A stretch of DNA of 64,000 nucleotides from Bacteroidales bacterium (GCA_016707785.1 JADJGZ010000014.1:4225-68224), one strand, 5' to 3'; numbered from the stretch's first letter, positions 1,735 to 64,000 are shown. Program-made: numbers and translations. The notes: generated from the sequence alone by a model not told the origin.

Positions 1735-4628
<2,894 letters not shown>

Positions 4629-4846: not shown

Positions 4847-4915
4847 TTGTGATTTCGGATTTTTGATTTCGGATTGCGGATTTAATAAATCCAAAATTCG
4901 CAATCCACAATCCAA

Positions 4916-5012: not shown

Positions 5013-5024
5013 AAAACGACTGTG

Positions 5025-5098: not shown

Positions 5099-5224
5099 AT
5101 TAATTCCTTTTCCCTCAGGGCAGCGCCCTCACTCACTCGCTTGGGTTAACAATAAAAACATGAAGTCAACACAGTAGTGAATATCCTTCCCGTCATTACT
5201 GACGGGACCAGAATAAATCACTCT

Positions 5225-6748
<1,524 letters not shown>

Positions 6749-6832
6749 GTAAGTTGATCTTAAATGTCTCAAGAAATATTCTACTCTTTTCTAATTGAAA
6801 AGGGATATTCGCTACTGTGTGATTGACTTCAG

Positions 6833-15035: not shown

Positions 15036-15126
15036 ATCTGATTACTGTTTAATTTCAAATACAAATGATTAAACAAAAGTGCATCATTTGTGTTTATATT
15101 GTACTATCACAGCGTTAACATTCACC

Positions 15127-16605: not shown

Positions 16606-16617
16606 CCTTACTGAATT

Positions 16618-18577: not shown

Positions 18578-18602
18578 ATTGTTAACTTAATAAATCAAAC
18601 AG

Positions 18603-19058: not shown

Positions 19059-19125
19059 TTATCTGCTCCTGTATTCTGGTTATCCTATCCTTCAATTATT
19101 TGAATAACAACATTGATCATCAGGA

Positions 19126-26496: not shown

Positions 26497-26504
26497 TAAA
26501 TTTG
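26497..26504 (+). promoter_or_regulatory. -7 promoter box for the citrate lyase genes
   Basis: TAaaTTTG, 64 nt upstream of ATG 26568. Confidence 0.4.
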
Positions 26505-26567
26505 TTTTATAAAATCAGGAAATATTTCCTGGTAGTGCTTCATTTTAACTTAATAATAATCAAGCAT

Positions 26568-27803: not shown

Positions 27804-27851
27804 TCGATCCCAAATTGTTAAATAAGATTTTGAAAAAAAAGACTTCCTATT

Positions 27852-33300: not shown

Positions 33301-35751
33301 CATCTCCCCAATATTTATATTGATGCTACCGCTTTCAGAAAAACCCTGGATGAGTTCATGCCTTTAACAGTTGCACATGGAGTCATTTCATTGAAAGTAG
33401 ATGATCCGGATCTAAAACTAAAGGTAGGGATAAAGGCTGCAGAGAAGTCGCGATCTGGTGTCAGGCAGATAATCACTTTAAATACCATCCCAAATGCTGA
33501 GGTAACGATAGCTGTTGTTGATGAAGGGATACTGCAAGTAACTGACTTTAAAACACCGGATCCATATGCCTGGTTTTATCAGAAAAGGGCCCTGGGAGTC
33601 AGTTCTTTTGATGTGTATGCCCTGCTTATGCCTGAAATGAGATCCAGCTCAAGTGTCGCTGGGGGAGAGGCTTTCGATCTTTCACGAAGGATCAATCCGC
33701 TGACCAATGAAAGAGTGAAACTCATCTCAAAATGGAGCGGTATAATGAAAGCTAATCATTCAGGCCAGGTTAGCTTCCCCATTGATATTCCTCAATTTTC
33801 AGGTGCATTAAGGGTAATGGCAGTAGCCTATAAGGATAATAAATTTGGTGTGGCTGAACATATGATGAAAGTTGCTGATCCTGTGGTTATCAGCATGGCA
33901 TTGCCCCGGTTTCTTAGTCCGGGTGATAAGGTAAAGATGTCGGCGTCCTTAACAAATACCACGGCCTCCGGCGGGAATGCGGAGGTACAGATTCAAACCA
34001 GCGGACCACTTTCGGTGGTTAGTTCAAAATCCAGTAAATTATACCTGAAAGCCGGGAAAGAGGAAACTGTTGATTTTGAAATTCAGGCACTTGCCAATTC
34101 GGGAAATGCTACCGTTACCTTAAAAGTGAAGGCACTGGGACAATCATTTTCACAGGAGATTGTGTTACCAGTAAGGCCTGCCGGAGGTTTGACATTCTCA
34201 ACCGGATCTGGTGCTGTTAAGGCCGGATCAACAGGTACATTTAAAACTGGAGGAGAACTGATTCCATCATCTGTTCAATCGAGCCTTTATATAACAAGAT
34301 CACCTGTTGGCAGATTTCTCACCAATCTCAACCAGTTGTTAAGATATCCCTATGGATGCCTTGAACAGACTGTTTCTGTGGCTTTTCCGCAGTTATATTT
34401 CAAAGACCTTGTTCAGTACATGGGTACAGCGAAGAATGATGATTCTTTTCACAATAATAATTCGGATCACAATGTTCAGCAGGCGATTCTCAAAATAGAA
34501 TCCATGCAACTCTACAATGGTGGGTTTAGTTTGTGGGAAAATGGTGGTATTGCTGATTGGTGGCCAAGTGCTTATGCCATTCACTTCCTGATGGAGGCTC
34601 AGAAAGCAGGATTCGATGTTAACAGGAAAGTAGTGGAAGGAGGTTTGGGATTCCTTGAACAGAAGGTTAAAGAAAAGGAGATGAATACCTGGTTCTATTA
34701 TGAGAATAATGTGCTGAAGTCGAAAAAAGTTCCACGACAGGAAATATTTTATTCTTTATATGTTCTTGCAATTGCTGACAGACCGTCAGTTTCGGTAATG
34801 AATTTCTACAAAAGCCAGGCTAATCAACTATCTCCTGAAAGCCGATACCTGCTTGCCTCATCATTCTTGCTTGCCGGTGATCGCAAAAGCTATCAATCCA
34901 CTCTTCCCAGGGCATTTGGTGCAGAGAGAGCTGAGCCAGCTTCTTCAGGATACTATGGGTCCTACCTTCGTGATCTGGCTATTTCGTTGAATGCAATACT
35001 TGAAGCTGATCCCGAAAATCCACAAGTGGGAGAGTTAATGGGACAAATAGTGGAAGAAGCTAAACGTCCTAATTATTATTATACTACCCAGGAAAATGCT
35101 TTTACCTTACTGGCAGTTGGGAAGCAGGTCAGAAAGGCCATGAATTCCAATATTAATGCATCCGTCAAGATAAATAGCAAACCAATTGGTTCATTTAATA
35201 ACAAGGATATTCGGTTTAAAGATGATTTGCTTAATAAAACAGTTTCTATTGCCGCTTCCGGAAGTGGGATGCTGTATTATTCCTATGAATTATCGGGTAT
35301 CAGTACTGTAGTTCCCAAGGGGGCCAAAGACAATTATATAAAGGTTCGGAAGAGGTATCTTGACAGGAATGGCCGCGAAGTAAGCCAGGGAAGATTTAAG
35401 CAAAATGAGTTGGTGGTTGTAGAGATATCTGCCCAGGCGATTACCGGGAAATCAATTGAAAATGTTGCCATCACTGATTTATTACCCGCATGTTTTGAAA
35501 TTGAGAATTCAAGGCTAGTAGCTGAACGGGAATTTTCCTGGATAAAATCCAAAGACCAGGCGGATTATGTGGACATCAGGGATGACAGGATTTCCTACTT
35601 CACTGGTTTAAATTCCGAAATCAAGTATTTTTATTACACTGTGAGGGTAGTAGGCAAAGGGCAGTTTACAGTAGGCCCGGTTACCGCTGATGCAATGTAT
35701 AATGCAAGTTACAATTCATTTTCGGGCAGCCAGGTATTCCTGGTTGAATGA
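30343..35751 (+). CDS. Bacterial alpha-2-macroglobulin family lipoprotein with an intact thioester motif
   Basis: 1802 aa with lipobox ILASSC. The repeated MG-domain-like pattern is seen, along with the thioester YPYGCLEQT (CLEQ at 34357-34368) and a C-terminal receptor-binding-like domain. Confidence 0.9.
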   Translation: MKRTIFNLLMIAILASSCTNFNTVRIKKTNFDEEVQRAQNLVFTFNKELLADTSFLNKWDTTVYMRFEPGIQGKFMWTAKNELTFSPSGQMSPSTNYKATLLPALLGKIKKNYKLESDPFLFHTPYLDVTSINTFWALSDDPAAKVEARLQLSFNNPVLPVKLQPHATIQVEGKTIPYSILTTSESETIEIALKPENGEFAENAEGKLSISVGMPSSGGNALTQKIITHSFNIPSKDQLSISSVETGFDVGKGIISVFTTQPVIEEGLAGAVSVDPAVEFTVSTLSGGFLIKGNFHENQAYTLRIGPSLKSVFGKTLDEEYVETVAFGAIEPFVGFMDETAMYLSSRGYRNLAISIINVPVIKVSVFKIFENNIQHYMRQGKNWDYVYDNDEYYDMYGYSFDENYGKPVMTKVVQTRSLPKNGNISLLNLDLDELQFSDPFKGVFLVKVESTDRRWLQDVQLLSLSDMGMIVKQGSEQVMVFVNSLKDASPVKSAKVDFISTNNQKIFTAITDNYGVAVMKNKDQLAAGFQLGMVSVRKESDFNFILLNNSRVETSRFEVGGKSVNALEYDVFIYGDRNLYRPGDSVNINVLVRTLRWETVKNIPLKIKLINPGGKEFISLKKQLSENGSAASSFYIPPQAMTGTYLIEVYSANNILLESRRISVEEFVPDRIKVSVKLDKQVYNPGEKIKVSTLAENLFGTVASGKKVETELRLMRKQLQPKAFPQYNFGITTQNLPVLTSLVQETVTDQAGKAEQEIIVPTVENIGILEGSIFSTVFDETGRPVNRLNIVTIPTQGLFFGIKEQDRWVNTRKPLNFSFVAVDKEGKAVKSAKAAITIIYSRYETVIERGYNRYNYVSQRKETVVFSKEMNFAGNGLNLPFVPGRSGEYEVRIAIPGSVNYVSHSFYAYGWGDTDFSSFEVDRDGEITITCDKQNYKPGEKAKLLFKAPFDGQMLVTYEQNNVLEYKYIELKNKSASLDISVSKAHLPNIYIDATAFRKTLDEFMPLTVAHGVISLKVDDPDLKLKVGIKAAEKSRSGVRQIITLNTIPNAEVTIAVVDEGILQVTDFKTPDPYAWFYQKRALGVSSFDVYALLMPEMRSSSSVAGGEAFDLSRRINPLTNERVKLISKWSGIMKANHSGQVSFPIDIPQFSGALRVMAVAYKDNKFGVAEHMMKVADPVVISMALPRFLSPGDKVKMSASLTNTTASGGNAEVQIQTSGPLSVVSSKSSKLYLKAGKEETVDFEIQALANSGNATVTLKVKALGQSFSQEIVLPVRPAGGLTFSTGSGAVKAGSTGTFKTGGELIPSSVQSSLYITRSPVGRFLTNLNQLLRYPYGCLEQTVSVAFPQLYFKDLVQYMGTAKNDDSFHNNNSDHNVQQAILKIESMQLYNGGFSLWENGGIADWWPSAYAIHFLMEAQKAGFDVNRKVVEGGLGFLEQKVKEKEMNTWFYYENNVLKSKKVPRQEIFYSLYVLAIADRPSVSVMNFYKSQANQLSPESRYLLASSFLLAGDRKSYQSTLPRAFGAERAEPASSGYYGSYLRDLAISLNAILEADPENPQVGELMGQIVEEAKRPNYYYTTQENAFTLLAVGKQVRKAMNSNINASVKINSKPIGSFNNKDIRFKDDLLNKTVSIAASGSGMLYYSYELSGISTVVPKGAKDNYIKVRKRYLDRNGREVSQGRFKQNELVVVEISAQAITGKSIENVAITDLLPACFEIENSRLVAEREFSWIKSKDQADYVDIRDDRISYFTGLNSEIKYFYYTVRVVGKGQFTVGPVTADAMYNASYNSFSGSQVFLVE

Positions 35752-49535: not shown

Positions 49536-49793
49536 ATGCTGATAAATCCAAAATTAGTGTTCCTGTATCTATTTCTATTTTGTCTGGCAATAACTAGTTT
49601 GCAGGCACAGGAGCCTCCACATCCTCCTTCAGGAAATCATGGGCTACATGGTAATCAACCTGCTGGAGGTAATGCCAGAGTAGGAGATGGAATTGGAATA
49701 GTGATTGCATTTGCCTTAGCTTATAGCTATAGGAAACTTAATAGAACCAAAAAAAATAATACTTCGGAACAAGTAAATGAACCATCAGAATAA
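49536..49793 (+). CDS. Small exported/membrane protein (85 aa)
   Basis: Signal peptide ending SLQAQ, then a Pro/Gly/His-rich linker (EPPHPPSGNHGLHGNQPAGGN), one TM helix (GIGIVIAFALAYSY) and a basic tail (RKLNRTKKN). Confidence 0.45.
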   Translation: MLINPKLVFLYLFLFCLAITSLQAQEPPHPPSGNHGLHGNQPAGGNARVGDGIGIVIAFALAYSYRKLNRTKKNNTSEQVNEPSE

Positions 49794-50096: not shown

Positions 50097-53000
50097 ATGA
50101 AGTTTTTTTGTACGCTTGCATTACTCTTCTTACTTGGTAGTTTCATTAATCCTCTCCGAGCCCAGGATATTCCAATTCATCCAACTCATATGGGCACCGG
50201 CACTTTTCTTGGAGAAACAAAACCACTTAGAGATTTACCAGTTCTGACGCCTGAAGAAGTTCAGTTTTTGAAAGAGAAGGCATTAAAAAAGGCCGCTAAT
50301 AAGAAAATTAAGCCCAGGGAGTATCCATTTGCAGAAACTGCTCTTCCAAATGGAGCGGATGAAGCCTGGCAAAAAACGATGGGTTCAACAGGTGGGAGTA
50401 AAGCTCCAATCGTCAATTTTGAAGGTCAGTCAACTTCATCCTTCCCTCCTGATTGCAATGGCGCGGTGGGCCCAAGTCACTATATGCAGACTGTGAATGT
50501 AACCTATTCAATTTATAACAAGACTGGTACTTTACTTGCCGGCCCCACAGCTTTAAATACGCTGTTCACTGGTGTTCCGGGAGCCACAGTAAATGATGGA
50601 GATCCGATTGTGCTTTATGATGAGATGGCGGATCGCTGGTTAGTGGCTGAGTTTACAATGAATCTATCTAACGATTATATGTTAGTTGCTGTATCTGCTA
50701 CCAATGACCCTACTGGCACATGGTACAAGTACTCTTTTGATGTTACCAATGATCCTGATTACCCTAAGTTTGGTGTTTGGCAGGATGGCTATTATATGGG
50801 TATCAACAGTACAGCCGGAAATGATATTTATGTGTTTGAAAGATCTAAAATGCTTCAGGGACTTACAGCCCAGATGGTAGGATTTGATAATGCATGGCGT
50901 CCCGGAACGGGATTTTTATGCGTACCACCTTTGGATAACGATGGAATTGCTGCTCCAGCCGGTGCTCCGGGTACTTTCATTGCTTTTAACGATGATGCAG
51001 TAGCCGGAGGGTCAGATCAGCTATGGATTTATGAGTTAAATGCCAACTGGACAACACCGGCATCTTCAACATTTTCAAGGGTACAACAGTTAGCTGTTAC
51101 AACATTTGATAGCCAGTTTACCGCCTCATGGGATGATATTGCTCAGCCAACCAGTCAAAAACTTGATGGTGTACCACAGGTTATAATGAATGCTCCACAA
51201 TACAGAAATTTTGGGAGTTATCAAACCATTGTTTGTTGTCATACAGTAGATGTAGATGCGACAAATCATGCAGGTATCCGCTGGTATGAGCTTAGAAGAG
51301 GCACGCAGACTTCCGGCAACTGGGCTGTTCGGCAGCAGGGGACTTATGCACCTGATGCTAATTCCCGTTGGATGGGCAGCATTATGCTGAATAATAGTGG
51401 GAAGATCGGACTTGGATATTCAATTTCCAGTTCTACGGTATATCCTGGAATCAGATACTGCGGGCAATCATCAAGTGCTTACGCAGCTGCTTCAGGAGTG
51501 CTTGATTTACCTGAAACAGTGATTCATAGTGGAACAGTTGCACAAACTACTTACAACCGCTGGGGAGATTATGCTCTCTTATCTGTTGACCCTCTTGATA
51601 ATGAAACTTTCTGGTTTACATCTGAATACGTGAAAACAGGAGGCACAACCAAAGGGACAAAAATTGCATCTTTCAAATTTGGGAATGCCCCGGCTGTTAC
51701 TACTCTAGCTGCCACTGCTATAACTTCCACTTCCGCAACACTTAATGGAACTGTTAATCCGTCAGGTTTGGCTACAACTTATTACTTCCAGTATGGAACT
51801 ACAACAAGTTATGGAAGTGTTACTTCAACCATTTCCGCCGGTTCTGGTACATCTGCAGTTACAGTAAGTGCAAATATTTCAGGATTAATCACTGGTCAGA
51901 CCTATCATTTCAGACTGGTTGCCACTAATACAGATGGTACTTCCAATGGAAGTGATCTTACTTTTGTACCTGGAGGAGCCATACTCACCACTACAGCAGT
52001 CAGTTCAATTACAATGTCAACTGCCGTTTCCGGTGGTACAATTACCACTGATGGAGGTTCAGCTATCACTGCCAGAGGTGTTTGCTGGTCAACCACTGCA
52101 AGTCCGGTAGCAACAGGATTACATACAACTGATGGTTCCGGAACTGGTACGTTTTCCAGTAGTATTACCGGATTGTCATCCAATACCACATACCATGTCC
52201 GTGCATATGCAACTAATGCCAATGGTACATTCTATGGACAGGATATTACTTTTGCTACATCATGCGGTATTATTACCTCTTTTCCCTGGAATGAGGGATT
52301 TGAAAATGCAGGTTCTATTCCATCTTGCTGGTCACAGGAATATGTTGGCAGTTCTGTATTAAACTGGGTATTTATTACTGGAAATGGAACAGGATATCCT
52401 GCAACTGCACATGGAGGTACCTATGATGCCTGTTTAAAAGATAATACTACAACCGCCAATATAACCAAGTTGGTCACTCCCCCACTCAATTTAACTGGTG
52501 TAAGCACTCCTCAACTCAAATTCTGGCATACCCAGGCTTTATGGAGTCCGGATCAGGATATTCTGACTGTTTATTACAAAACCAGTGTTGGAGGAACATG
52601 GACACAACTAGCCACTTATACAACCAGCGTAACTACCTGGACTGAGAGGACAATTGTCCTGCCTAATCCATCCAGTAGTTATTATATTGCTTTCGAGGGA
52701 AATGCCCTGTATGGCAGGGGTGTATGCGTGGATGATGTTTCGGTTTCAAGCCAATGTGTAACCACGTATCCTGTAAGTGTTGCAATTAGTGCTTCTGCTA
52801 ATCCCTCTTGTTCCGGGGTTGCTGTTAATTTTACAGCAGTGCCGACCAATGGAGGTACTACCCCGGCATATCAATGGAAAGTTAATGGCGTAAATGCAGG
52901 AACGAATAGTGCAACTTTCTCATATTCTCCTGTGAATGCTGATGTAGTGACCTGTGTATTAACCTCTAACCTGGCATGTGCAACAGGTAGTCCGGCTACC

Positions 53001-53216
53001 TCAAATTCTATCACAATGTCAGTAAGTGCTTCTGTTGCAGCATCTGTTAGTGTTTCTCCTTCAGCTAACCCGGTATGTGCCGGCACTTCAGTGACATACA
53101 CAGCGGTTCCTGCAAATGGCGGCACAACGCCTGTTTACCAGTGGAAAGTGAATGGCGTAAATGCAGGGACGAACAGTTCCACTTATGCATTCGTTCCATC
53201 AAATGGAAATGGGTAA
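50097..53216 (+). CDS. Giant secreted modular protein A, segment 1 of 3 (signal peptide, ~530-aa unknown head, two FN3-like modules, a MAM/cleaved-adhesin-like module, first Ig-like repeats)
   Basis: Signal peptide [23 protein letters not shown]. Modules were recognised by eye. The frame is lost in a degenerate repeat at about 53211. Confidence 0.8.
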
Positions 53217-56035
53217 CGCGACTGGCAGTCCGACACTCAAGAACGAGAGTGAATCCAACTGTAACCGCATCTGTGGCAATATCACACAATCCAGTGTGTG
53301 CAGGCACTTCAGTTACATACACTGCAACCCCAACCAATGGCGGCACAACGCCTGTTTACCAGTGGAAAGTGAATGGCGTAAATGCAGGAGAAAGTTCAGC
53401 ACTGTTCCATCAAATGGAAATGTGGTAACCTGTGTGATGACCAGCAATGCCACATGCGTGACTGGCAGTCCTGCCACTTCCAACAGTGTAACGATGACAG
53501 TGAATCCAACTGTAACCGCATCTGTGGCAATATCAGCATCAGCAAATCCAGTGTGTGCAGGCACTTCAGTCACTTTCACAGCCGTTCCCACCAATGGGGG
53601 CACAACTCCTTCATATCAGTGGAAGGTGAATGGCGTGAATGCCGGCACCAACAGTCCGAACTATTCTCATACTCCGGCAAATAATGATGTTGTAACTTGT
53701 GTAATGACATCCAATGCCAGTTGTGTGATCGGTAGTCCTGCAACTTCAAGTGGGATAACCATGACCGTGAATCCGCTTGTCACTGCTTCCGTCAGTATTT
53801 CAGCTTCGGCAAACCCAATCTGTGCAGGCCTTAGTTACTCGAGTCGGCCGGGTGCGCGCGCCTTTTCCAGCCCCTCGCTGCGTTGTGTTTGCGGCTGTGG
53901 TGTTGTCCTGTGGTCGCCTCAGTCCTGTTTCACCCCAGTGTCCTGTAGTGCAGGCACTTCAGTTACATTCACAGCAGTCCCCACAAATGAAGGCACAACT
54001 CCTGTCTATCAATGGAAGGTGAATGGCAACAATGCAGGAACCAATAGTGCAACATTCAATTATGTTCCAGCCAATAACGACCTGGTTACCTGCGAACTAA
54101 CATCAAATGCAGTTTGTGTTTCCGGCAGCCCGGCAACCTCCAATAGCATTGTAATGAGTGTTGATCCTGTGGTAACAGCCTCAGTCCTGATTTCACCCTC
54201 AGTGAATCCTGTATGTGCAGGCACTTCAGTTACATTCACAGCAGTCCCCACAAATGAAGGCACAACTCCTGTCTATCAATGGAAGGTGAATGGTAATAAT
54301 GCTGGAACCAATAGCGCAACATTTAATTATGTTCCAGCTAACAACGACCTGGTTACCTGCGAACTCACATCAAATGCAGTTTGTGTTTCCGGCAGCCCGG
54401 CAACCTCCAATAGCATTGTAATGAGTGTTGATCCTGTGGTAACAGCCTCAGTCCTGATTTCACCCTCAGTGAATCCGGTATGTGCAGGCACTTCAGTTAC
54501 ATTCACAGCAGTCCCCACAAATGAAGGTACAACTCCTGCTTATCAATGGAAGGTGAATGGCAACAATGCAGGAACCAATAGTGCAACATTCAATTATGTT
54601 CCAGCCAATAACGACCTGGTTACCTGCGAACTAACATCAAATGCAGTTTGTGTGAATGGCAGCCCGGCAACATCGAATAGCATTGTAATGAGTGTTGATC
54701 CTTTGGTAACAGCCTCAGTCCTGATTTCACCCTCAGTGAATCCTGTATGTGCAGGCACTTCAGTTACATTCACAGCAGTACCCACAAATGAAGGCACAAC
54801 TCCTGTCTATCAATGGAAGGTGAATGGCAATAATGCAGGAACCAATAGTGCAACATTCAATTATGTTCCAGCCAATAACGACCTGGTTACCTGTGAACTA
54901 ACATCAAATGCTGTTTGTGTTTCCGGCAGCCCGGCAACCTCCAATAGCATTGTGATGAGTGTTGATCCAGTGGTAACAGCCTCAGTCCTGATTTCACCCT
55001 CAGTGAATCCGGTATGTGCAGGCACTTCAGTTACATTCACAGCAGTACCCACAAATGAAGGTACAACTCCTGTCTATCAATGGAAGGTGAATGGCAATAA
55101 TGCGGGAACCAATAGTGCAACATTTAATTATGTTCCAGCCAATAACGACCTGGTTACCTGCGAACTCACCTCAAATGCAGTTTGTGTTTCCGGCAGCCCG
55201 GCAACGTCGAATAGCATTGTAATGAGTGTTGATCCTGTGGTAACAGCCTCAGTCCTGATTTCACCCTCAGTAAATCCGGTATGTGCAGGCTTCAGTTACA
55301 TTCACAGCAGTCCCCACAAATGCAGGCACAACTCCTGTCTATCTATGGAAGGTGAATGGCAACAATGCAGGAACCAATAGTTCGACATTCAATTATGTGC
55401 CTGCCAATAACGACCTGGTTACCTGTGAATTAACTTCAAATGCAGTTTGTGTGAATGGCAGCCCGGCGACCTCCAATAGCATTGCAATGAGTGTTGATCC
55501 AGTGGTAACAGCCTCAGTCCTGATTTCACCCTCAGTGAATCCTGTATGTGCAGGCACTTCAGTTACATTCACAGCAGTACCCACAAATGAAGGCACAACT
55601 CCTGTTTATCAATGGAAGGTAAATGACAATAATGAAGGAACCAATAGTTCAACATTCAATTATGTTCCAGCCAACAACGACCTGGTTACCTGTGAATTAA
55701 CATCAAATGCAGTTTGTGTTTCCGGCAGCCCGGCAACATCGAATAGCATTGTAATGAATGTTGATCCGTTATTAACTGTTAGTGTCAGTATCAATGCTTC
55801 CTCTAACCCTGTATTAGCTGGTACAGAAGTAAGCTTTACAGCCATCGGAGTAAATCAGGGATCCAACCCGGTTTATCAGTGGAAGGTGAATGGTTTGGCT
55901 GTGGGAATAAATGCAACAATGTATTCCTATGTTCCGAATAATGGGGATATCATCTTATGTGAACTTACCTCAGATGCTTTATGTGCAACAGGCAATCCGG
56001 CAGTATCTGAACCGGTGGTTATGGGAGTAGATCCC
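52773..56035 (+). repeat. 12 tandem 267-bp (89-aa) Ig/PKD-like coding repeats of gene A (types A, B and C)
   Basis: Unit: [88 protein letters not shown]. The type-B copies are near-identical at the nucleotide level. Confidence 0.9.
53161..55380 (+). CDS. Giant protein A, segment 2 of 3 (Ig-like repeats 3-10)
   Basis: Genuine repeat coding in this frame starts at about 53400; the earlier part of the track ORF is out of frame. Repeat sequence at 53255-53390 is in the third frame (track ORF 53075..53428). Contains an aberrant 126-nt block at 53830-53955. Confidence 0.7.
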
Positions 56036-56869
56036 CTTGCATTATCAGTCAATCCTCCAAGTCAGTCGGTGGGTCCATCAGCCGGAACAATTCAATACAC
56101 TGTAACCTCAAATACATCCTGGACTGTTGAAAGTGATCAGCCATGGTGTTTAGTAAGTCCTGCAGGAAGTGGCAATGGATTGGTGACAGTGAATTATGAT
56201 GCGAATACATCAGGTTTGAGCAGGAGTGCAGTGATTACTGTAACAGTAATTGGTTTACCTGCAGTCAGTGTTTCCTTAGTACAGGATGCTGAAACTACAA
56301 AGCAGCTCAACTTGAGTGTATTACTGGAAGGTTTGTATAATGGTGTTTCTCTTAATAAGGCACAAAATGCAAGCGGATCGCAATTCCCTGGTTCTGTGGC
56401 CGACCGGATCATTGTTGAATTACATGAATCTGTATCGCCTTATTCCATAGTAGGAGGGCCTTATGAAGTGGATATTCAAACCGATGGTACAGCTCAGGTT
56501 ACAATACCTTCTATGTTAGGATCATCCTATTACCTGATTGTTAAGCACAGGAATAGTTTGGAGACCTGGTCAATGAATCCTGTTTCATTCAGTGGCGCAA
56601 CAATCAGCTATGATTTTAGCAGTTCTGCAAGTCAGGCAATGGGAGGAAATATGAAATCGGTGGCCGGGAAATTTGTTGTGTATTCAGGTGATATTGATCA
56701 GGATGGGCAGATTGATTCAGATGATATGATCCTGATGAATACGGAGGCTGAAAATTTCATCTCAGGATATGTAGTATCTGATTTGAATGGAGATGGATTG
56801 ATTGATGCCGGTGATATGATCCTTTTGGATAATAATGCAGCAATTCTGGTTGTAAAGGTTACTCCTTAA
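55283..56869 (+). CDS. Giant protein A, segment 3 of 3 (repeats 10-12, BACON-like module, ~130-aa beta-rich module, dockerin-type double EF-hand)
   Basis: The frame changes at a 2-nt deletion (gcaggc/ttcag, 55290). BACON-like: TVTSNTSWTVESDQPWCLVSPAGSGNG...SRSAVITVT. C-terminus: DIDQDGQIDSDD...DLNGDGLIDAGD. Confidence 0.8.
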   Translation: MQASVTFTAVPTNAGTTPVYLWKVNGNNAGTNSSTFNYVPANNDLVTCELTSNAVCVNGSPATSNSIAMSVDPVVTASVLISPSVNPVCAGTSVTFTAVPTNEGTTPVYQWKVNDNNEGTNSSTFNYVPANNDLVTCELTSNAVCVSGSPATSNSIVMNVDPLLTVSVSINASSNPVLAGTEVSFTAIGVNQGSNPVYQWKVNGLAVGINATMYSYVPNNGDIILCELTSDALCATGNPAVSEPVVMGVDPLALSVNPPSQSVGPSAGTIQYTVTSNTSWTVESDQPWCLVSPAGSGNGLVTVNYDANTSGLSRSAVITVTVIGLPAVSVSLVQDAETTKQLNLSVLLEGLYNGVSLNKAQNASGSQFPGSVADRIIVELHESVSPYSIVGGPYEVDIQTDGTAQVTIPSMLGSSYYLIVKHRNSLETWSMNPVSFSGATISYDFSSSASQAMGGNMKSVAGKFVVYSGDIDQDGQIDSDDMILMNTEAENFISGYVVSDLNGDGLIDAGDMILLDNNAAILVVKVTP

Positions 56870-56896
56870 CTACCTGTTTGCCCTTATAATATAGAG

Positions 56897-56935
56897 TTCC
56901 GGGGAATTTCACATTCCCCGGAATACTGCTTTTCT
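56897..56935 (+). terminator. Terminator after gene A
   Basis: 11-bp stem TTCCGGGGAAT / ATTCCCCGGAA followed by a T-rich tail. Confidence 0.6.
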
Positions 56936-57057
56936 GATGATTCTTTGAACGCACACACTAGAATGCCAAGAATTCAAATGAAGTTTGCAGAGCAATTAAA
57001 TGATCATTGTTTAATGCTTAAGCAACCAAAAAAACTCTGAACAACAAAAGAAATACT

Positions 57058-60000
57058 ATGAATTTAATTTCTAAGTCCCTGACACTTGTTTTATGTTTTG
57101 TCTCAGTTTTGGTTTATTCTCAAACCAAAGATCAAACAGAAAACTTGAAAAGCATTGCTGAAAAGGCAAAAGACTCATATTTGCTCAATAGGGCTGCTGC
57201 TGAAAAAACAGCAATTCAAAAAGGATGGCCGATTAAGGCAGAAGTGGATGGGTCACTTATTGAAATTCAACATCTTAATGAAAGAGGAATTCCACAATAT
57301 TATAAAACTGATAATTCGAATGCGGCAGCAACAATTTCGACCAATAAAGTATATTCAGGTGGTGGTGCCGGTTTAAGTTTGACCGGATCCGGAATAATAG
57401 TAAGAGAATGGGATGGTGGAAGTGTTTTGAATACACATCAGGAATTTGGCACACGGGTTACAGTGGTAGATGCAGTTGCTACTCATTATCATGCAACCCA
57501 TGTAGCTGGAACTATTATGGCCTCAGGTGTGGTTGCTAATGCAAAAGGAATGGCCTATGAAGCCGGGCTTCGATCCTTTGACTGGAATACTGATGTTACA
57601 GAAATGGCAACAGAAGGTGCTGCTGGTGCATTAATCAGTAACCATTCCTATGGTTATATAAGAGGTTGGTATAGCGGTACCTGGTATGGTGACCCTGCAA
57701 TTAGTACTACTGAAGATTATCTGTTTGGATTTTATGACTCATATACGCAACAGTGGGATCAGATAGCCTATAATGCTCCGAATTTCCTAATCTGTAAATC
57801 AGCAGGAAATGACAGGGGGGATTCAGGTAGTGGTTACCCTGCTGATGGACCCTATGATTGTATTGGTCAACAAGGCGTCGCAAAAAATATTCTTACTGTA
57901 GGTGCTGTTGACGATATTCCCGGAGGTTATACAACACCAGCTGGTGTATCTCAAACCAATACCTACTTTAGTTCATGGGGCCCGGCTGATGACGGTCGTA
58001 TTAAGCCTGATATTGTTGCCAACGGGTACTCATTGTATTCTACTTATAATACCAATAATACCAGCTATTCGAGTTTAAGCGGGACATCCATGTCAACTCC
58101 CTCTGCTTCCGGATCTCTGGCTTTACTTCAACAACATAGGTTTGCCCTGACCGGATCTTATTTGAAAGCAGCTACTTTAAAAGCTGTGGTGATTCATACT
58201 GCTGACGAAGCTGGTGCCAATACAGGCCCTGACTATAATTATGGTTGGGGATTGATGAATACAAAGAATGCAGCCCTTAAGATTTCTTCTGATCAAACTG
58301 TTGATGTTATCAGTGAATTGACGCTCAATAATGGTGCTACATATACAAGAAATATTATTGCTTCTGGCACTGAACCGATAAAGGTGACTATTGTCTGGAC
58401 TGATCCTGCCGGTACTCCTCCGGCTGCAGCTCTGGATCCAATTACTCCTATGCTGGTGAATGACCTGGATCTCCGACTCAGTTATTCATCAAATACCTAC
58501 TATCCCTGGAAATTGAACCGCGATACTCCAACTGCCGCTGCTACCAATTCAACAGAAAATAATGTGGATAATGTAGAAGTGGTATATATAGCAAGTCCTG
58601 TTGCTGGTGCCACCTATACTATTACAGTGGATCATGATGGCTCCTTAACCGGAGGTTCACAGGCCTATTCCGTAGTTATTAGCGGAATTCTTGCCACAGT
58701 TGCACCTGTAGCTGATTTTTCTGCCAGTACAACAACACCAGCTGTGAATGCCCAGGTAAACTTTACTGATATTTCATCCAATGTCCCTACAAGTTGGGCA
58801 TGGAGTTTCAATCCGGCTACAGTAACCTATCTGAATGGGACAACTTCAGCTTCTCAAAATCCACAAGTGAAGTTTACTGCTGCGGGCTCTTACTCTGTAA
58901 CGCTTACTGCAACTAATGCATATGGGAGTGATGGTGAAACTAAAACTAATTATATTAATGTAACTAATTGTACTTTTAATAGCTTGCCTTTTATTCAAAA
59001 TTTTGATGCAACCACACTACCTACTTGCTGGTCGCAAATTGACAATATAGGTAATGGACAGATATGGCAATTCGGAACCATTACCGGCTATACACCATTG
59101 CCTTCCCTAAATGGTAATTATGCTTATCTGAATTCAGATGCCTATGGAAGTGGGAGCAGTCAAAATGCTGACCTGATTACGCCTACTCTTGATTTAACTA
59201 ATTATACAGGAGTAAATCTGACATTTAGCTATTATTTTAGATCTTATACTGGTTCTTCTGGAAACCTGTTTTATAGTATCAATAATGGAGTAACCTGGAC
59301 ATCGTTACTATCGGTTTCTGCAACATCTTCGAATCCAACAGTGTTCAACCAGACAATTGCAGCTCTGGCAGGTCAATCGCAGGTGAAATTTAAATGGAAT
59401 TATACAGGTAGTTATGGCTATTATTGGGCAATAGACAATGTTTCTGTAACTGGAACAGTTGCAGCTATTCCAACAGTTACCACTACTGCTGCCTCAGCAA
59501 TTACCACATCTTCAGCTACTGCAGGAGGAAATGTAACAGCAACTGGCGGCTCATCAGTTACAGCCAGGGGTGTTTGTTGGTCAACATCTATTGATCCTGT
59601 TGCTTCAGGTAATCACACTACTGATGGGAGCGGAACCGGTGCATTTACAAGTTCTATAACTGGTTTATCAGCTAACTCCCTCTATTATGTAAGAGCCTAC
59701 GCGACCAATAGCAGTGGTACAGCTTATGGAATTAACCAGACATTTACAACCTGTGCTGCAATGTTACCTGCTTCTGTAAGTATCAGCGCATCTGTTAATC
59801 CTGTTTGTGCTGGTACTTCTGTCACTTTTACAGCCGTTCCCACCAATGGGGGTACAACTCCTTCATATCAGTGGAAAGTGAATGGGGTGAATGCTGGGAC
59901 GAACAGTTCCACCTATGCATTCGTTCCATCAAATGGAAATGTGGTAACCTGTGTGATGACCAGCAATGCCACATGCGTGACTGGCAGTCCTGCCACTTCC

Positions 60001-60123
60001 AACAGTGTAACGATGACAGTGAATCCACCGCATCTGTTGCAGTTCGGTATCCAGTGTGTGCAGACCGCACTTTCACAGCCGTTCCCACCAATGGGGTGCA
60101 ACTCCATTCATATCGGGAAGTGA
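57058..60123 (+). CDS. Giant secreted subtilase B, segment 1 of 2 (S8 peptidase, P-domain-like, PKD, MAM/cleaved-adhesin-like, FN3-like, first Ig-like repeat)
   Basis: Signal peptide, then the S8 motifs VREWDGG (Asp region), HATHVAGTI (His), NHSYG (Asn) and SGTSMSTPSASG (Ser). P-domain-like: TIVWTDPAG...LVNDLDLRL. PKD: ADFSAS...SYSVTLTATNAYG. The frame is lost at about 60030. Confidence 0.85.
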   Translation: MNLISKSLTLVLCFVSVLVYSQTKDQTENLKSIAEKAKDSYLLNRAAAEKTAIQKGWPIKAEVDGSLIEIQHLNERGIPQYYKTDNSNAAATISTNKVYSGGGAGLSLTGSGIIVREWDGGSVLNTHQEFGTRVTVVDAVATHYHATHVAGTIMASGVVANAKGMAYEAGLRSFDWNTDVTEMATEGAAGALISNHSYGYIRGWYSGTWYGDPAISTTEDYLFGFYDSYTQQWDQIAYNAPNFLICKSAGNDRGDSGSGYPADGPYDCIGQQGVAKNILTVGAVDDIPGGYTTPAGVSQTNTYFSSWGPADDGRIKPDIVANGYSLYSTYNTNNTSYSSLSGTSMSTPSASGSLALLQQHRFALTGSYLKAATLKAVVIHTADEAGANTGPDYNYGWGLMNTKNAALKISSDQTVDVISELTLNNGATYTRNIIASGTEPIKVTIVWTDPAGTPPAAALDPITPMLVNDLDLRLSYSSNTYYPWKLNRDTPTAAATNSTENNVDNVEVVYIASPVAGATYTITVDHDGSLTGGSQAYSVVISGILATVAPVADFSASTTTPAVNAQVNFTDISSNVPTSWAWSFNPATVTYLNGTTSASQNPQVKFTAAGSYSVTLTATNAYGSDGETKTNYINVTNCTFNSLPFIQNFDATTLPTCWSQIDNIGNGQIWQFGTITGYTPLPSLNGNYAYLNSDAYGSGSSQNADLITPTLDLTNYTGVNLTFSYYFRSYTGSSGNLFYSINNGVTWTSLLSVSATSSNPTVFNQTIAALAGQSQVKFKWNYTGSYGYYWAIDNVSVTGTVAAIPTVTTTAASAITTSSATAGGNVTATGGSSVTARGVCWSTSIDPVASGNHTTDGSGTGAFTSSITGLSANSLYYVRAYATNSSGTAYGINQTFTTCAAMLPASVSISASVNPVCAGTSVTFTAVPTNGGTTPSYQWKVNGVNAGTNSSTYAFVPSNGNVVTCVMTSNATCVTGSPATSNSVTMTVNPPHLLQFGIQCVQTALSQPFPPMGCNSIHIGK

Positions 60124-62138
60124 ATGGCGTAAATGCAGGGACGAACAGTTCCACTTATGCATTCGTGCCATCAAATGGGAATGTGGTATCCTGTGTGATG
60201 ACCAGCAATGCCACTTGCGTGACTGGCAGTCCAGCCACTTCTAATAGTGTAACGATGACAGTGAATCCAACCGTAACCGCATCTGTTGCAGTATCAGCAT
60301 CGGCAAATCCAGTGTGTGCAGGCACTTCAGTCACTTTCACAGCCGTTCCCACCAATGGGGGTACAACTCCTTCATATCAGTGGAAGGTGAATGGTGTGAA
60401 TGCAGGGACTAATAGCTCCACTTATGCATTCGTACCATCAAATGGGAATGTGGTATCCTGTGTGATGACCAGCAATGCCACTTGCGTGACTGGCAGTCCA
60501 GCCACTTCCAATAGTGTAACATTGACAGTGAATCCAATGGTTACGGCATCTGTAGCAATTTCAGCATCTGCAAACCCAGTTTGTGCAGGTACATCAGTTA
60601 CGTACACTGCTGTTCCTGCTAATGGAGGAACAACTCCAATTTATCAATGGAAGGTGAATGGTAACAATGCAGGAACCAATAGTGCAACATTCAATTATGT
60701 TCCAGCCAACAACGACCTGGTTACCTGTGAACTAACATCAAATGCAGTTTGTGTTTCCGGCAGCCCGGCAACCTCCAATAGCATTGTAATGAGTGTTGAT
60801 CCTGTGGTAACAGCCTCAGTCCTGATTTCACCCTCAGTGAATCCGGTATGTGCAGGCACTTCAGTTACATTCACAGCAGTACCCACAAATGAAGGCACAA
60901 CTCCTGTCTATCAATGGAAGGTGAATGGCAACAATGCAGGAACCAATAGTGCAACATTTAATTATGTTCCAGCCAATAACGACCTGGTTACCTGCGAACT
61001 AACATCAAATGCAGTTTGTGTGAATGGCAGCCCGGCAACCTCCAATAGCATTGTAATGAGTGTTGATCCTGTGGTAACAGCCTCAGTCCTGATTTCACCC
61101 TCAGTGAATCCTGTTTGTGCAGGCACTTCAGTTACATTCACAGCAGTACCCACAAATGAAGGTACTACTCCTGCTTATCAATGGAAGGTGAATGGCAACG
61201 ATGCAGGAACCAATAGTGCAACATTTAATTATGTTCCAGCCAATAACGACCTGGTTACCTGCGAACTAACATCAAATGCAGTTTGTGTGAATGGCAGCCC
61301 GGCAACATCGAATAGCATTGTAATGAGTGTTGATCCTGTGGTAACAGCCTCAGTCCTGATTTCACCCTCAGTGAATCCGGTCTGTGCAGGCACTTCAGTT
61401 ACATTCACAGCAGTACCTACAAATGAAGGTACAACTCCTGTTTATCAATGGAAGGTGAATGGCAACAATGCAGGAACCAATAGTGCAACATTTAATTATG
61501 TTCCAGCCAACAACGACCTGGTTACCTGCGAACTAACATCAAATGCAGTTTGTGTTTCCGGCAGCCCGGCGACCTCCAATAGCATTGTAATGAGTGTTGA
61601 TCCTGTGGTAACAGCCTCAGTCCTGATTTCACCCTCAGTGAATCCGGTATGTGCAGGCACTTCAGTTACATTCACAGCAGTACCCTCAAATGAAGGCACA
61701 ACTCCTGTCTATCAATGGAAGGTGAATGGCAACAATGCAGGAACCAATAGTGCGACATTCAATTATGTTCCAGCCAACAACGACCTGGTTACCTGCGAAC
61801 TAACATCAAATGCTGTTTGTGTTTCCGGCAGCCCGGCAACCTCCAATAGCATTATTATGAGTGTTGATCCGTTATTAACTGTTAGTGTCAGCATCAACGC
61901 TTCCTCTAACCCTGTATTAGCTGGTACAGAAGTAAGCTTTACAGCCATCGGAGTAAATCAGGGTTCCAACCCGGTTTATCAGTGGAAGGTGAATGGTTTG
62001 GCAGTAGGAACAAATGCAACAATGTATTCCTATGTTCCGAATAATGGGGATATCATCCTATGTGAACTGACCTCAGATGCTTTATGTGCAACAGGCAATC
62101 CGGCGGTATCTGAACCGGTGGTTATGGGAGTAGATCCC
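59771..62138 (+). repeat. 9 tandem 267-bp Ig/PKD-like coding repeats of gene B (3 type A, 1 A/B hybrid, 4 type B, 1 type C)
   Basis: Same unit as in gene A. A 105-nt stretch, 59923-60027, is identical to 53404-53508. Confidence 0.9.
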
Positions 62139-62972
62139 CTTGCGTTATCAGTCGATCCTCCAAGTCAGTCGGTGGGTCCATCAGCCGGAACAATTCAATA
62201 CACTGTAACCTCAAATACAGCCTGGACTGTTGAAAGTGATCAGCCATGGTGTTTAGTAAGTCCTGCAGGAAGTGGCAATGGATTGGTAACAGTGAATTAT
62301 GATGCGAATACATCAGGTTTGAGCAGGAGTGCAGTGATTACTGTAACAGTAATTGGTTTACCTGCGGTCAGTGTTTCCTTGGTACAGGATGCAGAAACTA
62401 CAAAGCAGCTCAATTTGAGTGTTTTATTAGAAGGTTTATATAATGGGACTTCACTTAATAAGGCACAAAGTACAAGCGGTGACCAATTTGCAGGAACAAT
62501 TGCTGACCGTATCATTGTTGAGTTGCATGAATCTGTTTCACCCTATTCCATAGTTGGAGTGCCCTATGAAGTGGATATCCACACTGATGGTTCAGCACAA
62601 GTAGCAATTCCATTATCACTAGGTTCCTCATACTACCTTGTAATTAAACACAGAAATAGTTTGGAGACATGGTCAGCAAATCCGGTTTCATTCAGTGGCG
62701 CAACAATCAGCTATGATTTTAGCAGTTCTGCAAGTCAGGCACTTGGAGGAAACATGAAATCGGTGGCCGGCAAGTTTGTACTGTATTCAGGAGATATTGA
62801 TCAGGACGGGCAGATTGATTCAGATGATATGATCCTGATGAATACGGATGCGGAAAGCTTTATCTCAGGATATGTGGTTTCCGACCTGAATGGTGACGGC
62901 TTGATCGATGCAGATGATATGATTCTGCTTGATAATAATGCAGCAAATACGATTAGTGTCGTGAGGCCTTAA
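59805..62972 (+). CDS. Giant subtilase B, segment 2 of 2 (repeats 2-9, BACON-like, beta-rich module, dockerin-type double EF-hand)
   Basis: Genuine coding in this frame starts at about 60120. The C-terminal ~370 aa are colinear with and highly similar to gene A, ending DIDQDGQIDSDD...DLNGDGLIDADD. Confidence 0.8.
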   Translation: MCWYFCHFYSRSHQWGYNSFISVESEWGECWDEQFHLCIRSIKWKCGNLCDDQQCHMRDWQSCHFQQCNDDSESTASVAVRYPVCADRTFTAVPTNGVQLHSYREVNGVNAGTNSSTYAFVPSNGNVVSCVMTSNATCVTGSPATSNSVTMTVNPTVTASVAVSASANPVCAGTSVTFTAVPTNGGTTPSYQWKVNGVNAGTNSSTYAFVPSNGNVVSCVMTSNATCVTGSPATSNSVTLTVNPMVTASVAISASANPVCAGTSVTYTAVPANGGTTPIYQWKVNGNNAGTNSATFNYVPANNDLVTCELTSNAVCVSGSPATSNSIVMSVDPVVTASVLISPSVNPVCAGTSVTFTAVPTNEGTTPVYQWKVNGNNAGTNSATFNYVPANNDLVTCELTSNAVCVNGSPATSNSIVMSVDPVVTASVLISPSVNPVCAGTSVTFTAVPTNEGTTPAYQWKVNGNDAGTNSATFNYVPANNDLVTCELTSNAVCVNGSPATSNSIVMSVDPVVTASVLISPSVNPVCAGTSVTFTAVPTNEGTTPVYQWKVNGNNAGTNSATFNYVPANNDLVTCELTSNAVCVSGSPATSNSIVMSVDPVVTASVLISPSVNPVCAGTSVTFTAVPSNEGTTPVYQWKVNGNNAGTNSATFNYVPANNDLVTCELTSNAVCVSGSPATSNSIIMSVDPLLTVSVSINASSNPVLAGTEVSFTAIGVNQGSNPVYQWKVNGLAVGTNATMYSYVPNNGDIILCELTSDALCATGNPAVSEPVVMGVDPLALSVDPPSQSVGPSAGTIQYTVTSNTAWTVESDQPWCLVSPAGSGNGLVTVNYDANTSGLSRSAVITVTVIGLPAVSVSLVQDAETTKQLNLSVLLEGLYNGTSLNKAQSTSGDQFAGTIADRIIVELHESVSPYSIVGVPYEVDIHTDGSAQVAIPLSLGSSYYLVIKHRNSLETWSANPVSFSGATISYDFSSSASQALGGNMKSVAGKFVLYSGDIDQDGQIDSDDMILMNTDAESFISGYVVSDLNGDGLIDADDMILLDNNAANTISVVRP

Positions 62973-63072
62973 TAGATGCTCAGGCTGAAAATGTTAACAT
63001 TGGCCGAAACTTTTAAATAATAACTTAAACGAATCAAGGGTTGATAACAAAACATTCATATTTACAGCAAAA

Positions 63073-63099
63073 CCTTACAGGATTTCAAATCCTGTAAGG
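63073..63099 (+). terminator. Hairpin after gene B (weak terminator)
   Basis: 10-bp stem CCTTACAGGA / TCCTGTAAGG. There is no clear T-run. Confidence 0.4.
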
Positions 63100-63161
63100 C
63101 TTAGACCCTAAATATTTGAATATTAGTTCAATTCTTGATTCGCATAATTTACTCTTTTACC

Positions 63162-64000
63162 ATGAAGCTTAAAACTAGTTTACTTATCATTGCCGGACTG
63201 ATGATCTTCCGGTTTTCTTTCAGCCAGACTGTAAAAGAGTTCTATTTCTCATTTCCACTGCCATCAAAAGAAAAGGTCCATACACTGACAAAACAAATTT
63301 CAATTGATAATGTCAGGAATGATACCGTCTGGGCATATGCTACCCCGGCACAATTTGTTAGGTTTCTTAAGGAAGGGTATGCTGTAACATTGCTTCCATC
63401 ACCTGGCTATGCACCAGATGTATTCATGAATGACAATCCCGTTCTTGCCCCTGCCACAACATGGAATTTTTATCCGACGTATTCTGCCTATGAGAGTTAC
63501 ATGGCCCAGTTTGAGTCGAATTATCCTGCTATATGTAAACTATCTACAATAACTACTTTAGCCAGTGGGAGGAAGATTCTGGTGGTCAAAATTTCAGATA
63601 ATGTGGCTATAGATGAAACTGAGCCGGAGTTTTTATATACTTCTTCGATTCATGGTGATGAAACCACCGGATATATCCTGATGATGCACCTGATTGATTA
63701 TTTATTGTCCAATTACGGTACAAATGCCGAAGTGAATGACCTGGTAAATAATATGGAGATTTATATAAATCCATTATCCAATCCTGATGGAACCTATGCC
63801 GGAGGAAATGCTTCAGTCAGTGGAGCTACAAGAGGAAATGCTAATGGAGTAGATATGAACAGGAATTATCCTGATCCGGAAGATGGCCAGCATCCTGATG
63901 GCAATGTATGGCAGCCTGAGACAATTGCTTTTATGGATTTTGCCGGTCAACATCACTTTGTGGCTTCAGCTAATTTTCATGGTGGGGCAGAAGTGGTAAA
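63162..64000 (+). CDS. M14 family zinc carboxypeptidase, N-terminal part (continues beyond the window end)
   Basis: Hand translation: MKLKTSLLIIAGLMIFRFSFSQ (signal peptide) ... PEFLYTSSIHGDETTGY (HxxE zinc motif) ... NPDG ... GVDMNRNYP ... ANFHGGAEVV. Not in the track because there is no stop in the window. Confidence 0.85.
   Translation, partial: MKLKTSLLIIAGLMIFRFSFSQTVKEFYFSFPLPSKEKVHTLTKQISIDNVRNDTVWAYATPAQFVRFLKEGYAVTLLPSPGYAPDVFMNDNPVLAPATTWNFYPTYSAYESYMAQFESNYPAICKLSTITTLASGRKILVVKISDNVAIDETEPEFLYTSSIHGDETTGYILMMHLIDYLLSNYGTNAEVNDLVNNMEIYINPLSNPDGTYAGGNASVSGATRGNANGVDMNRNYPDPEDGQHPDGNVWQPETIAFMDFAGQHHFVASANFHGGAEVV

Follow-up and report, generated by a model that had tools for sequence, protein, structure and literature searches.

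Two giant, neighbouring genes of a Bacteroidales bacterium raise the question of how the very large secreted proteins that they encode could be displayed on the cell. The genes, A (50097-56869) and B (57058-62972), are arranged in tandem on the same strand of a 64,000-nt stretch of DNA (GCA_016707785.1 JADJGZ010000014.1:4225-68224), which is called the window below, and are followed by a gene for an M14 carboxypeptidase; the cluster occupies positions 50097-64000. Assembly through cohesins and dockerins is considered characteristic of the cellulosomes of Gram-positive bacteria, and the display of enzymes on the surface of Bacteroidota is thought to use type IX secretion system (T9SS) sorting domains or lipidation. 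A first-pass annotation of this cluster had proposed a long-stalk, dockerin-anchored protease display system. The identity of the tail of both proteins as a dockerin holds on the homology of its family profile, and the predicted structure is that of a sandwich-dockerin dyad resembling the type II X module-dockerin (X-Doc) units rather than that of a type I dockerin by itself. Since related Bacteroidales encode proteins with four cohesin modules, (Coh)4, that end in a T9SS domain or in the same dyad, display by cohesin-dockerin pairs anchored through the T9SS is plausible.

The argument begins with the last 189 residues of each protein. The two elements described there in the first-pass annotation, a ~130-aa module with the motif KHRNSLETWS and a terminal pair of Ca-loop motifs, are present, the module being ~127 aa long; the 30 residues given as the gap between the loops are in fact the distance from start to start, and the gap itself is 14 aa. 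Positions 1, 3, 5, 9 and 12 of both loops are D, D or N, D, D and D, and they are invariant or nearly so in 62 relatives, across which the beta-sandwich is also conserved. The sandwich belongs to no Pfam family. Helices are predicted after both loops (tail residues 140-151 and 170-181), which gives the two loop-helix segments expected of a dockerin. When the profile built from the 62 relatives was compared with the PDB, it matched dockerins of solved structure, among them those of Ruminococcus flavefaciens, C. cellulolyticum and C. thermocellum, with E-values of up to 1e-3 (5lxv_B, 1.5e-7; 2vn5_B, 2.8e-5; 6kg9_A, 4.4e-5; also 3ul4_B and 1daq_A), and the match was limited to the dockerin part (profile positions ~197-259). 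A word-indexed search gave 95 relatives of the tail, many of which have a precomputed PF00404 assignment. Single-sequence scores against Dockerin_1 lie on both sides of the cutoff (22.9 bits), with 23.1 bits for the 67-aa C-terminal segment of gene A and lower values for the full 189-aa tails. A reading of the tail as a T9SS C-terminal domain was rejected, since no type A (PF18962/TIGR04183), type B (TIGR04131) or CHU_C model of Pfam and NCBIfam matched it at E<=10; the same models readily match neighbouring genes and scaffoldins.

The AlphaFold2 model of the 189-aa tail is one rigid unit with a predicted local distance difference test score (pLDDT) of 97.3 and a predicted template-modelling score (pTM) of 0.90, in which the sandwich (residues 1-127) is followed by two paired loop-helix segments. 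Its ten best fold matches in the PDB were all type II X-Doc dyads (CipA, ScaA and CipB; E 1e-5 to 1e-4, template-modelling (TM) score 0.50-0.54), and these alignments spanned both modules (182-200 columns, 14-19% identity). The sandwich also resembles the transthyretin-like and DUF3823 sandwiches of Bacteroides carbohydrate-binding proteins. The dockerin assignment made at first pass therefore survives at the profile level, but the closest structural analogues are type II X-Doc dyads, and the single-sequence Pfam scores are borderline.

The same C-terminal module is found on many other proteins, often on several in one genome and in tandem. An exhaustive phmmer search with the tail across 1.84 billion representatives returned 4,376 representative clusters at E<=1e-10; at E<=1e-30 the number was 796. 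Among the 148 best matches, the dyad lies within 12 aa of the C-terminus in 138 (93%), the last residue is Pro in 114, and 59 proteins exceed 1,000 aa. Among species-representative genomes, single metagenome-assembled genomes (MAGs) of Bacteroidales, Lentimicrobiaceae, Prolixibacteraceae and Ignavibacteria contain several copies of the dyad; the closest tail on the contigs of these genomes is 65% identical, and two to five dyad-tail genes are often in tandem at related loci. An exact search for the transketolase encoded in the window gave no match. The heads are diverse and include the head family of gene A, trypsin-like peptidase, M14, sortilin/BNR, cytochrome-like and other types. An all-against-all clustering of the open reading frames (ORFs) that flank tail genes gave as recurrent neighbours only T9SS cargo and Fib_succ_major/Lcl_C proteins. 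The latter are lectin-like, and their genes adjoin dyad-tail genes at L013:1241-1906, L014:12266-17681, L020:5054-7255 and L023:8941-9924. Within one polypeptide, a Fib_succ_major/Lcl_C domain comes after the dyad in proteins P0273, P0302, P0312, P0326, P0356 and P0357. Such proteins may be functional partners of the dyad, or the fusions may be artefacts of read-through.

Cohesins are encoded together with the dyad in related genomes. A dyad-tailed protein of a Bacteroidales MAG (L017) contains four cohesin modules, and in two proteins with a non-terminal dyad (P0252 and P0326) an above-threshold Pfam Cohesin domain lies just upstream of it. A profile made from seven cohesin modules gave nearly full-length matches to solved cohesins in the PDB, and the top 15 matches were all cohesins. 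A metagenome scan with a cohesin alignment returned 31 loci, ~25 of which encode proteins of 1,110-1,160 aa that consist of a signal peptide and (Coh)4, with Pfam Cohesin scores of 68-87 bits (cutoff 24.1). Their C-termini are of three types: a T9SS type A domain (L029, L035 and L039; Por_Secre_tail 35-40 bits, cutoff 27), the same dyad as in the window (L037 and L017) and a variant dyad (L041, L048 and others). Cohesin-like modules occur in 11 of the 148 top dyad proteins (~7%), and dyad-tail genes adjoin cohesin genes in L017 and L028.

Further details of these loci were recorded. The variant dyad is carried by both (Coh)4 and single-cohesin proteins (L041:9911-13387, L048:6863-10342, L053:1772-2917 and others); it has the motifs LKAFLEGPF, VVWHRNHL, SGDGNGDG and GDFNMN, and only the middle of the tail hidden Markov model (HMM) matched it. 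Two more genes with a variant dyad tail lie directly downstream in L041. A 2,072-aa protein at L057:5342-11557 unites in one chain an M6 peptidase, BNR/sortilin, CARDB, a single cohesin-like module, Dockerin_1 and a terminal T9SS domain. A word-indexed protein search with the cohesin profile gave nine matches, all of them N-terminal fragments of larger, frameshifted genes. In the long-read MAGs L024, L026, L027 and L028, many "small" dockerin or cohesin proteins of the public collections are likewise pieces of frameshifted giant genes, and database counts of short dyad and cohesin proteins are inflated for this reason.

The giants themselves are built on a common plan, and most of the modules named in the first-pass annotation were recovered (Table 1). 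Its start and stop coordinates for both genes agree with the ORF analysis, the 12 and 9 tandem 89-aa repeats agree with repeat mapping, and the BACON-like module is above the Pfam cutoff in both proteins; the PKD module of gene B is also confirmed. The MAM/cleaved-adhesin-like sandwich is present in both: in gene B it is above the cutoff (Reelin_subrepeat-B 33.8 bits and Cleaved_Adhesin 22.3 bits, beside MAM at 20.2 bits), and in gene A it is just below. Gene A encodes, in order, a signal peptide, the head, FN3, an FN3-like module, the MAM-like sandwich, 12 repeats, BACON and the 189-aa tail. Its second FN3-like module is weak (fn3 E 0.03) and also matches the N-terminal region of NF049889. 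Gene B encodes a signal peptide, an S8 subtilase, a segment of ~150 aa, PKD, the MAM/cleaved-adhesin-like sandwich and an FN3-like module, and after these nine repeats, BACON and the tail. The claim that both genes carry the same module series is right as to the modules, but the order of the sandwich and the FN3-like module is reversed in gene B. The P-domain-like module claimed for gene B has no Pfam support: its residues 400-560 match no family even at E<=1, and a kexin-type P domain (PF01483) was rejected because P_proprotein gave no match.

Table 1. Features of the window, those of the gene cluster first (strand and remarks as far as available; scores are Pfam scores).
Feature	Position	Strand	Remarks
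Gene A, whole	50097-56869	+	~2,257 aa if repaired; overlapping ORFs 50097-53216, 53161-55380, 55283-56869
Signal peptide and head, gene A	50097-51686	+	signal peptide ~aa 1-22, then Q; head ~500 aa, predicted beta-propeller
FN3 and second FN3-like module, gene A	51693-52268	+	aa 533-619 and aa 632-724; fn3 24.4 bits (cutoff 25)
MAM-like beta-sandwich, gene A	52269-52757	+	MAM 24.4 bits (cutoff 26.4, just under), E 2.9e-5
12 PKD/Ig-like repeats, gene A	52758-56029	+	89 aa (267 bp) each; PKD_3 and PKD matches on array
Damaged zone, gene A	53211-53410	+	unit 2 truncated, unit 3 with several small indels; frame 0 to 2 to 1
In-frame 126-bp insert, gene A	53830-53955	+	in repeat unit 5; ~60% GC
Frameshift, gene A	55290-55297	+	repeat unit 10; 2-bp deletion relative to intact units, near 55292
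BACON module, gene A	56030-56299	+	BACON_2 49.8 bits, BACON 41.3 bits; E 3e-13
X-module-like beta-sandwich, gene A	56300-56680	+	tail aa 1-127; motifs LEGLY, KHRNSLETWS; AlphaFold2 strands aa 2-127, pLDDT >96
Dockerin-like module, gene A	56681-56866	+	Ca loops DIDQDGQIDSDD and DLNGDGLIDAGD, a helix after each; terminal Pro
Terminator-like hairpin	56896-56924	+	strong; 12-bp stem, then T-rich run; directly after gene A
Gene B, whole	57058-62972	+	~1,971 aa if repaired; ORFs 57058-60123, 59805-62972
Subtilase (S8) catalytic domain, gene B	57409-58251	+	Peptidase_S8 117.5 bits, E 8.9e-34
PKD module, gene B	58699-58962	+	PKD_4 38.2 bits
MAM/cleaved-adhesin-like sandwich, then FN3-like module, gene B	58963-59757	+	order reversed relative to gene A
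9 repeats, gene B	59755-62132	+	89 aa each; repeat mapping
Damaged repeat unit 2, gene B	60015-60263	+	249 bp instead of 267, many indels; source of frame change
BACON module, gene B	62133-62402	+	BACON 33.1 bits; colinear with gene A, offset 6103 bp
Tail dyad, gene B	62403-62969	+	beta-sandwich and dockerin-like module; 86% protein identity to tail of A
M14 carboxypeptidase gene, 5' part	63162-64000	+	Peptidase_M14 132 bits; cut by window end
Complete rRNA operon	1540-6750	-	5S 1540-1649, 23S 1733-4625, two tRNAs 4919-5098, 16S 5227-6750
Carotenoid-type gene cluster	15079-19866	+	amine-oxidase/phytoene-desaturase-like, phytoene/squalene synthase, one unassigned ORF, NUDIX, fatty-acid-hydroxylase-type, lycopene cyclase
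Citrate lyase pair	26502-29414		
Bacterial alpha-2-macroglobulin gene	30343-35751	+	intact, 1,802 aa; MG2, bMG3/5/6/10, bait region, TED
85-aa ORF	49536-49793	+	300 bp upstream of gene A; signal peptide, Pro/Gly-rich stretch, C-terminal hydrophobic helix, then basic residues

The label "hydrolase" or "protease display" fits gene B and the M14 gene and does not extend to gene A. On its sequence, gene B encodes an S8 subtilase, as first annotated, with the Asp/His/Ser triad and the oxyanion Asn present (D119, H145, S344 and N195, from the motifs WDGG, HATHVAGT, SGTSMSTP and NHSYG). The M14 gene was found where the first-pass annotation had placed it, starting 189 bp after gene B; its match to Peptidase_M14 (E 3e-38) covers profile positions 1-188 before the window ends. 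Its product shows 70% identity to an M14 protein of L010 whose C-terminus is the same dyad, and by this likeness it probably carries the dyad tail too. Head A (residues 1-530) was described at first pass as having no recognisable motif, and it has no match in Pfam, NCBIfam or the PDB sequences, including searches with phmmer and with a 42-sequence profile against the PDB. An AlphaFold2 model from this alignment of 42 sequences is all-beta (pLDDT 87, pTM 0.88), and Foldseek returned resemblance at the level of fold class only, to sialidase, GH43 and other propellers (TM-score 0.25-0.35; root-mean-square deviation (rmsd) 9-11 A). Head A is thus predicted to be a propeller of undefined function; its assignment to a glycoside hydrolase or sialidase-type propeller or to another catalytic family was rejected, as there is no sequence match and the fold matches are generic. 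No function can be assigned to it, and for this reason the hydrolase label of gene A is unproven. Head A is a member of a very large family of Bacteroidota (>3,376 matches), most members of which end in the T9SS type A sorting domain PF18962; the nearest homologue, 76% identical, is from a Lentimicrobium MAG.

Identity between the stalks and tails of the two giants is mosaic. The central repeat units of gene A are 93-96% identical to one another in DNA, and units 5-8 of gene B show 93-98% DNA identity to them. A comparison of 55763-56869 with 61866-62972 gives 96-99% DNA identity from the last repeat through BACON to the start of the tail, and 70-85% over the remaining tail. Because of this mosaic, the sequences suggest recent recombination between the two stalks, or gene conversion that acts on the stalk as the tails diverge. 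The A-B and B-M14 intergenic spacers were also compared and are not duplicates of each other, and a promoter scan gave a result no better than on shuffled sequence.

From profile homology, the predicted fold of the tail, the distribution of the dyad and the cohesin proteins of related lineages, we consider it slightly better than an even bet that the giants are exported by Sec and dock through the dyad, in a Ca-dependent manner, on cohesin scaffoldins that are joined to the T9SS. The products of genes A and B, and probably that of the M14 gene, would be giant modular proteins that leave the cytoplasm by the Sec route, head first in the chain; behind the head would follow a few beta-sandwich modules, a rod of 12 or 9 PKD-like repeats, BACON and a rigid C-terminal dyad. 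With its sandwich packed on a two-loop, Ca-binding dockerin, the dyad would dock Ca-dependently on the cohesins of scaffoldin-like proteins. (Coh)4 proteins with a T9SS type A domain would be those attached to the cell surface, those ending in a dyad would act as adaptor scaffoldins, and through the stalk the enzyme head would stand tens of nanometres off the surface. Cohesin binding, a partner encoded in this genome and the surface location are what we infer for the cluster. The long-stalk, dockerin-anchored protease display imagined at first pass is in this way retained in its dockerin tail and its stalk, and the cohesin proteins of relatives are candidate partners; it is amended in that the tail is a sandwich dyad, not a lone type I dockerin, and in that the protease label does not extend to gene A. 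None of the outcomes named at first pass as fatal to that idea was found.

There are several points that weigh against such docking. All the evidence is computational. In single-sequence searches, scores against Dockerin_1 are borderline: the 189-aa tails reach 19.7 bits (A) and 12.1 bits (B), below the cutoff of 22.9, and the 67-aa C-terminal segment of A is just above it. The likeness of the fold to X-Doc is moderate (TM-score ~0.5, rmsd ~5 A), and neither the comparison of the profile with the PDB nor the fold alignments revealed sequence similarity between the sandwich and the clostridial X modules. As the first-pass annotation had stated, the 64-kb window holds no cohesin, either by Pfam on ORFs of >=120 aa or by a local cohesin HMM on ORFs of >=50 aa; the 10 kb around the closest tail relatives (L001-L004) contain none, and four other tail-gene neighbourhoods lack one as well. 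Candidate partners are thus present in related Bacteroidales, some of them T9SS-sorted, but not in the window. The enzymes and the adaptor scaffoldins share the dyad type, and the hierarchy of binding is therefore ambiguous. Finally, the proteins of genes A and B have a Sec signal and neither a T9SS domain nor a lipobox, and we know of no outer-membrane route for a Bacteroidota protein that lacks both a T9SS C-terminal domain and a lipoprotein signal.

The alternative that survives best, although we consider it unlikely, is that the dyad, stabilised by Ca, binds something other than a cohesin, perhaps a glycan of the surface or the substrate, or a lectin-like Fib_succ_major/Lcl_C protein. To our knowledge, there are many non-cellulosomal dockerin-like modules for which no cohesin is known. 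The absence of cohesins from the window and from the vicinity of most tail genes is in keeping with a different ligand, as are the position of Fib_succ_major after a non-terminal dyad in six of eight proteins, the genes of this type directly beside tail genes in L013, L014, L020 and L023, the likeness of the sandwich to those of Bacteroides carbohydrate-binding proteins and the BACON module that always directly precedes the dyad in genes A and B. However, genuine cohesins and the dyad are joined in one polypeptide in L017, L037, P0252 and P0326, and cohesin-like modules are found in the fraction of top dyad proteins given above. The apparent Fib_succ_major fusions may also be read-through between adjacent genes, and no ligand-binding site was identified in the dyad.

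It might also be asked whether genes A and B make full-length proteins at all. They were first annotated as continuous genes, but A is split into three ORFs and B into two, and with their frames broken they could be pseudogenes: decaying genes whose frameshifts, truncated unit and foreign insert truly exist in the genome. We consider this quite improbable. The damage was mapped by placing the consensus 89-aa repeat back on the DNA and aligning the damaged units against intact ones. In gene A the frame is disrupted at four or more places and changes near 53211-53251, near 53395-53410 and near 55292, in addition to the 126-bp insert, and gene B has one badly damaged unit, which together give decay its appeal; yet every disruption falls within the arrays of near-identical 267-bp repeats, where assembly and polishing fail, and the clustering of indels resembles low-quality sequence. 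The first ~86 nt of the insert (53830-53915, GC-rich, CTTAGTTACTCGAGTCGGCCGGGTGCGCGCGCC...) match nothing elsewhere in the window and could be a chimeric or low-quality read or adapter/vector sequence; the remainder is a degraded copy of a repeat start. Away from the damage, the reading frames run on without a break, and both heads and tails are whole and well conserved. Long genes elsewhere in the window are unbroken, such as that for the 1,802-aa alpha-2-macroglobulin; proteins with head A and the dyad are single ORFs in the relatives L001 and L002; and homologous genes in long-read MAGs are fragmented in a like manner. For these reasons the breaks are probably errors of assembly or polishing in the repeats, and the true repeat numbers are consequently uncertain.

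In a last alternative, the dyad would serve mainly for export or sorting and not for docking; it would stand in for the T9SS C-terminal domain and be recognised by the T9SS or by another outer-membrane machine. It draws on the relatives of head A, which mostly end in PF18962 where A, L001 and L002 have the dyad at the same position, on the extreme C-terminal place of the dyad in 93% of the top matches with its conserved terminal Pro, on the named sources (Bacteroidales, Ignavibacteria and Flavobacterium), which are T9SS lineages, on the T9SS cargo genes found as neighbours and on the fact that no other outer-membrane route is evident for dyad proteins. It is nevertheless very improbable, because the dyad resembles type A and B domains neither in sequence nor by profile, its extreme C-terminus is predicted to be a helical dockerin and not the Ig-like sandwich of known sorting domains, cellulosomal dockerins are also typically C-terminal, and L057 holds both a dockerin and a terminal Por_Secre_tail, so that the two are not simply interchangeable.

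Returning to docking on cohesins, the proposed system can be set beside known ones. Peer and colleagues are said to have noted non-cellulosomal dockerins in Bacteroidetes in 2009. The type II X-Doc units of C. thermocellum CipA and Acetivibrio cellulolyticus ScaA (PDB 2b59, 4fl4, 5g5d, 4u3s and 4wi0) are alike in that a sandwich lies N-terminal to, and is packed on, a two-loop dockerin at the C-terminus of a large modular protein, and the likeness to CipA extends to those dyad carriers that are multi-cohesin scaffoldins. Here, however, the sandwich is larger (~127 aa), transthyretin-like and without sequence similarity, with a TM-score of only ~0.5; the dyad is found on enzymes as well as scaffoldins; the dockerin segments are nearly symmetrical, a trait more typical of type I; and the hosts are diderm Bacteroidota instead of Firmicutes. 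Type I dockerins (PF00404) share the duplicated, 12-residue EF-hand-like loop and helix and the C-terminal position on secreted enzymes, with profile E-values of 1e-7 to 1e-4. They differ from the modules described here in that the latter have borderline Pfam scores and a shorter spacing between the loops (30 residues from start to start), are always fused to a conserved beta-sandwich and are carried by peptidases and unassigned heads, not by cellulases. T9SS type A cargo (PF18962/TIGR04183) is alike in phylum and plan, in which Q comes after the signal peptide and an enzyme head is joined to PKD, FN3 and BACON modules and a C-terminal targeting module, whereas the tail here matches no sorting domain and ends in a helical dockerin instead of an Ig-like sandwich.

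Dockerins of Bacteroidetes have also been reported from rumen metagenomes by Bensoussan et al. (PMC6487960). The nearest precedent is in Cloacimonadota: Williams et al. (2021) inferred from MAGs of Candidatus Stygibacter a cellulosome-like system with dockerin-tailed S8 and C25 peptidases and a cohesin scaffoldin that carries a T9SS-type C-terminal domain (PMC8542988). That system belongs to another phylum, and its scaffoldin has 3,755 aa and CBM2/CBM3, in contrast to the (Coh)4 proteins described here, which are compact (~1,100 aa) and have Ig linkers. The X-like sandwich, the giant PKD stalk and the dyad-tailed adaptor scaffoldin are not described there, and both systems were characterised in silico. 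In the searchable literature, no description of the sandwich-dockerin dyad, its giant PKD-stalk carriers or compact Bacteroidales (Coh)4 scaffoldins was found. The kind of system is already known, and the cluster would be a variant of it, not a new category.

Beyond the cluster, the remaining features of the window are listed at the end of Table 1. One of them, the alpha-2-macroglobulin gene, specifies a protease inhibitor of broad range and lies 14 kb upstream of the protease cluster.

A wider claim is tentative and rather doubtful at present, namely that a widespread, undescribed cohesin-dockerin enzyme display on the T9SS exists in Bacteroidales and others of the Fibrobacteres-Chlorobi-Bacteroidetes (FCB) group, with surface-fixed (Coh)4 proteins, dyad-tailed adaptors and hundreds of dyad enzymes, many of them peptidases on long PKD stalks, and in which the dyad might possibly also be a new outer-membrane export signal. 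If the dyad does dock on T9SS-anchored scaffoldins, a third, modular display mechanism would be added in a dominant environmental phylum, and its main use would be with proteases instead of cellulases. This would raise the question of how dyad-tailed proteins cross the outer membrane, and new orthogonal cohesin-dockerin pairs would become available for protein engineering. It would also give a role to a family of at least 800 clusters that are currently labelled "hypothetical".

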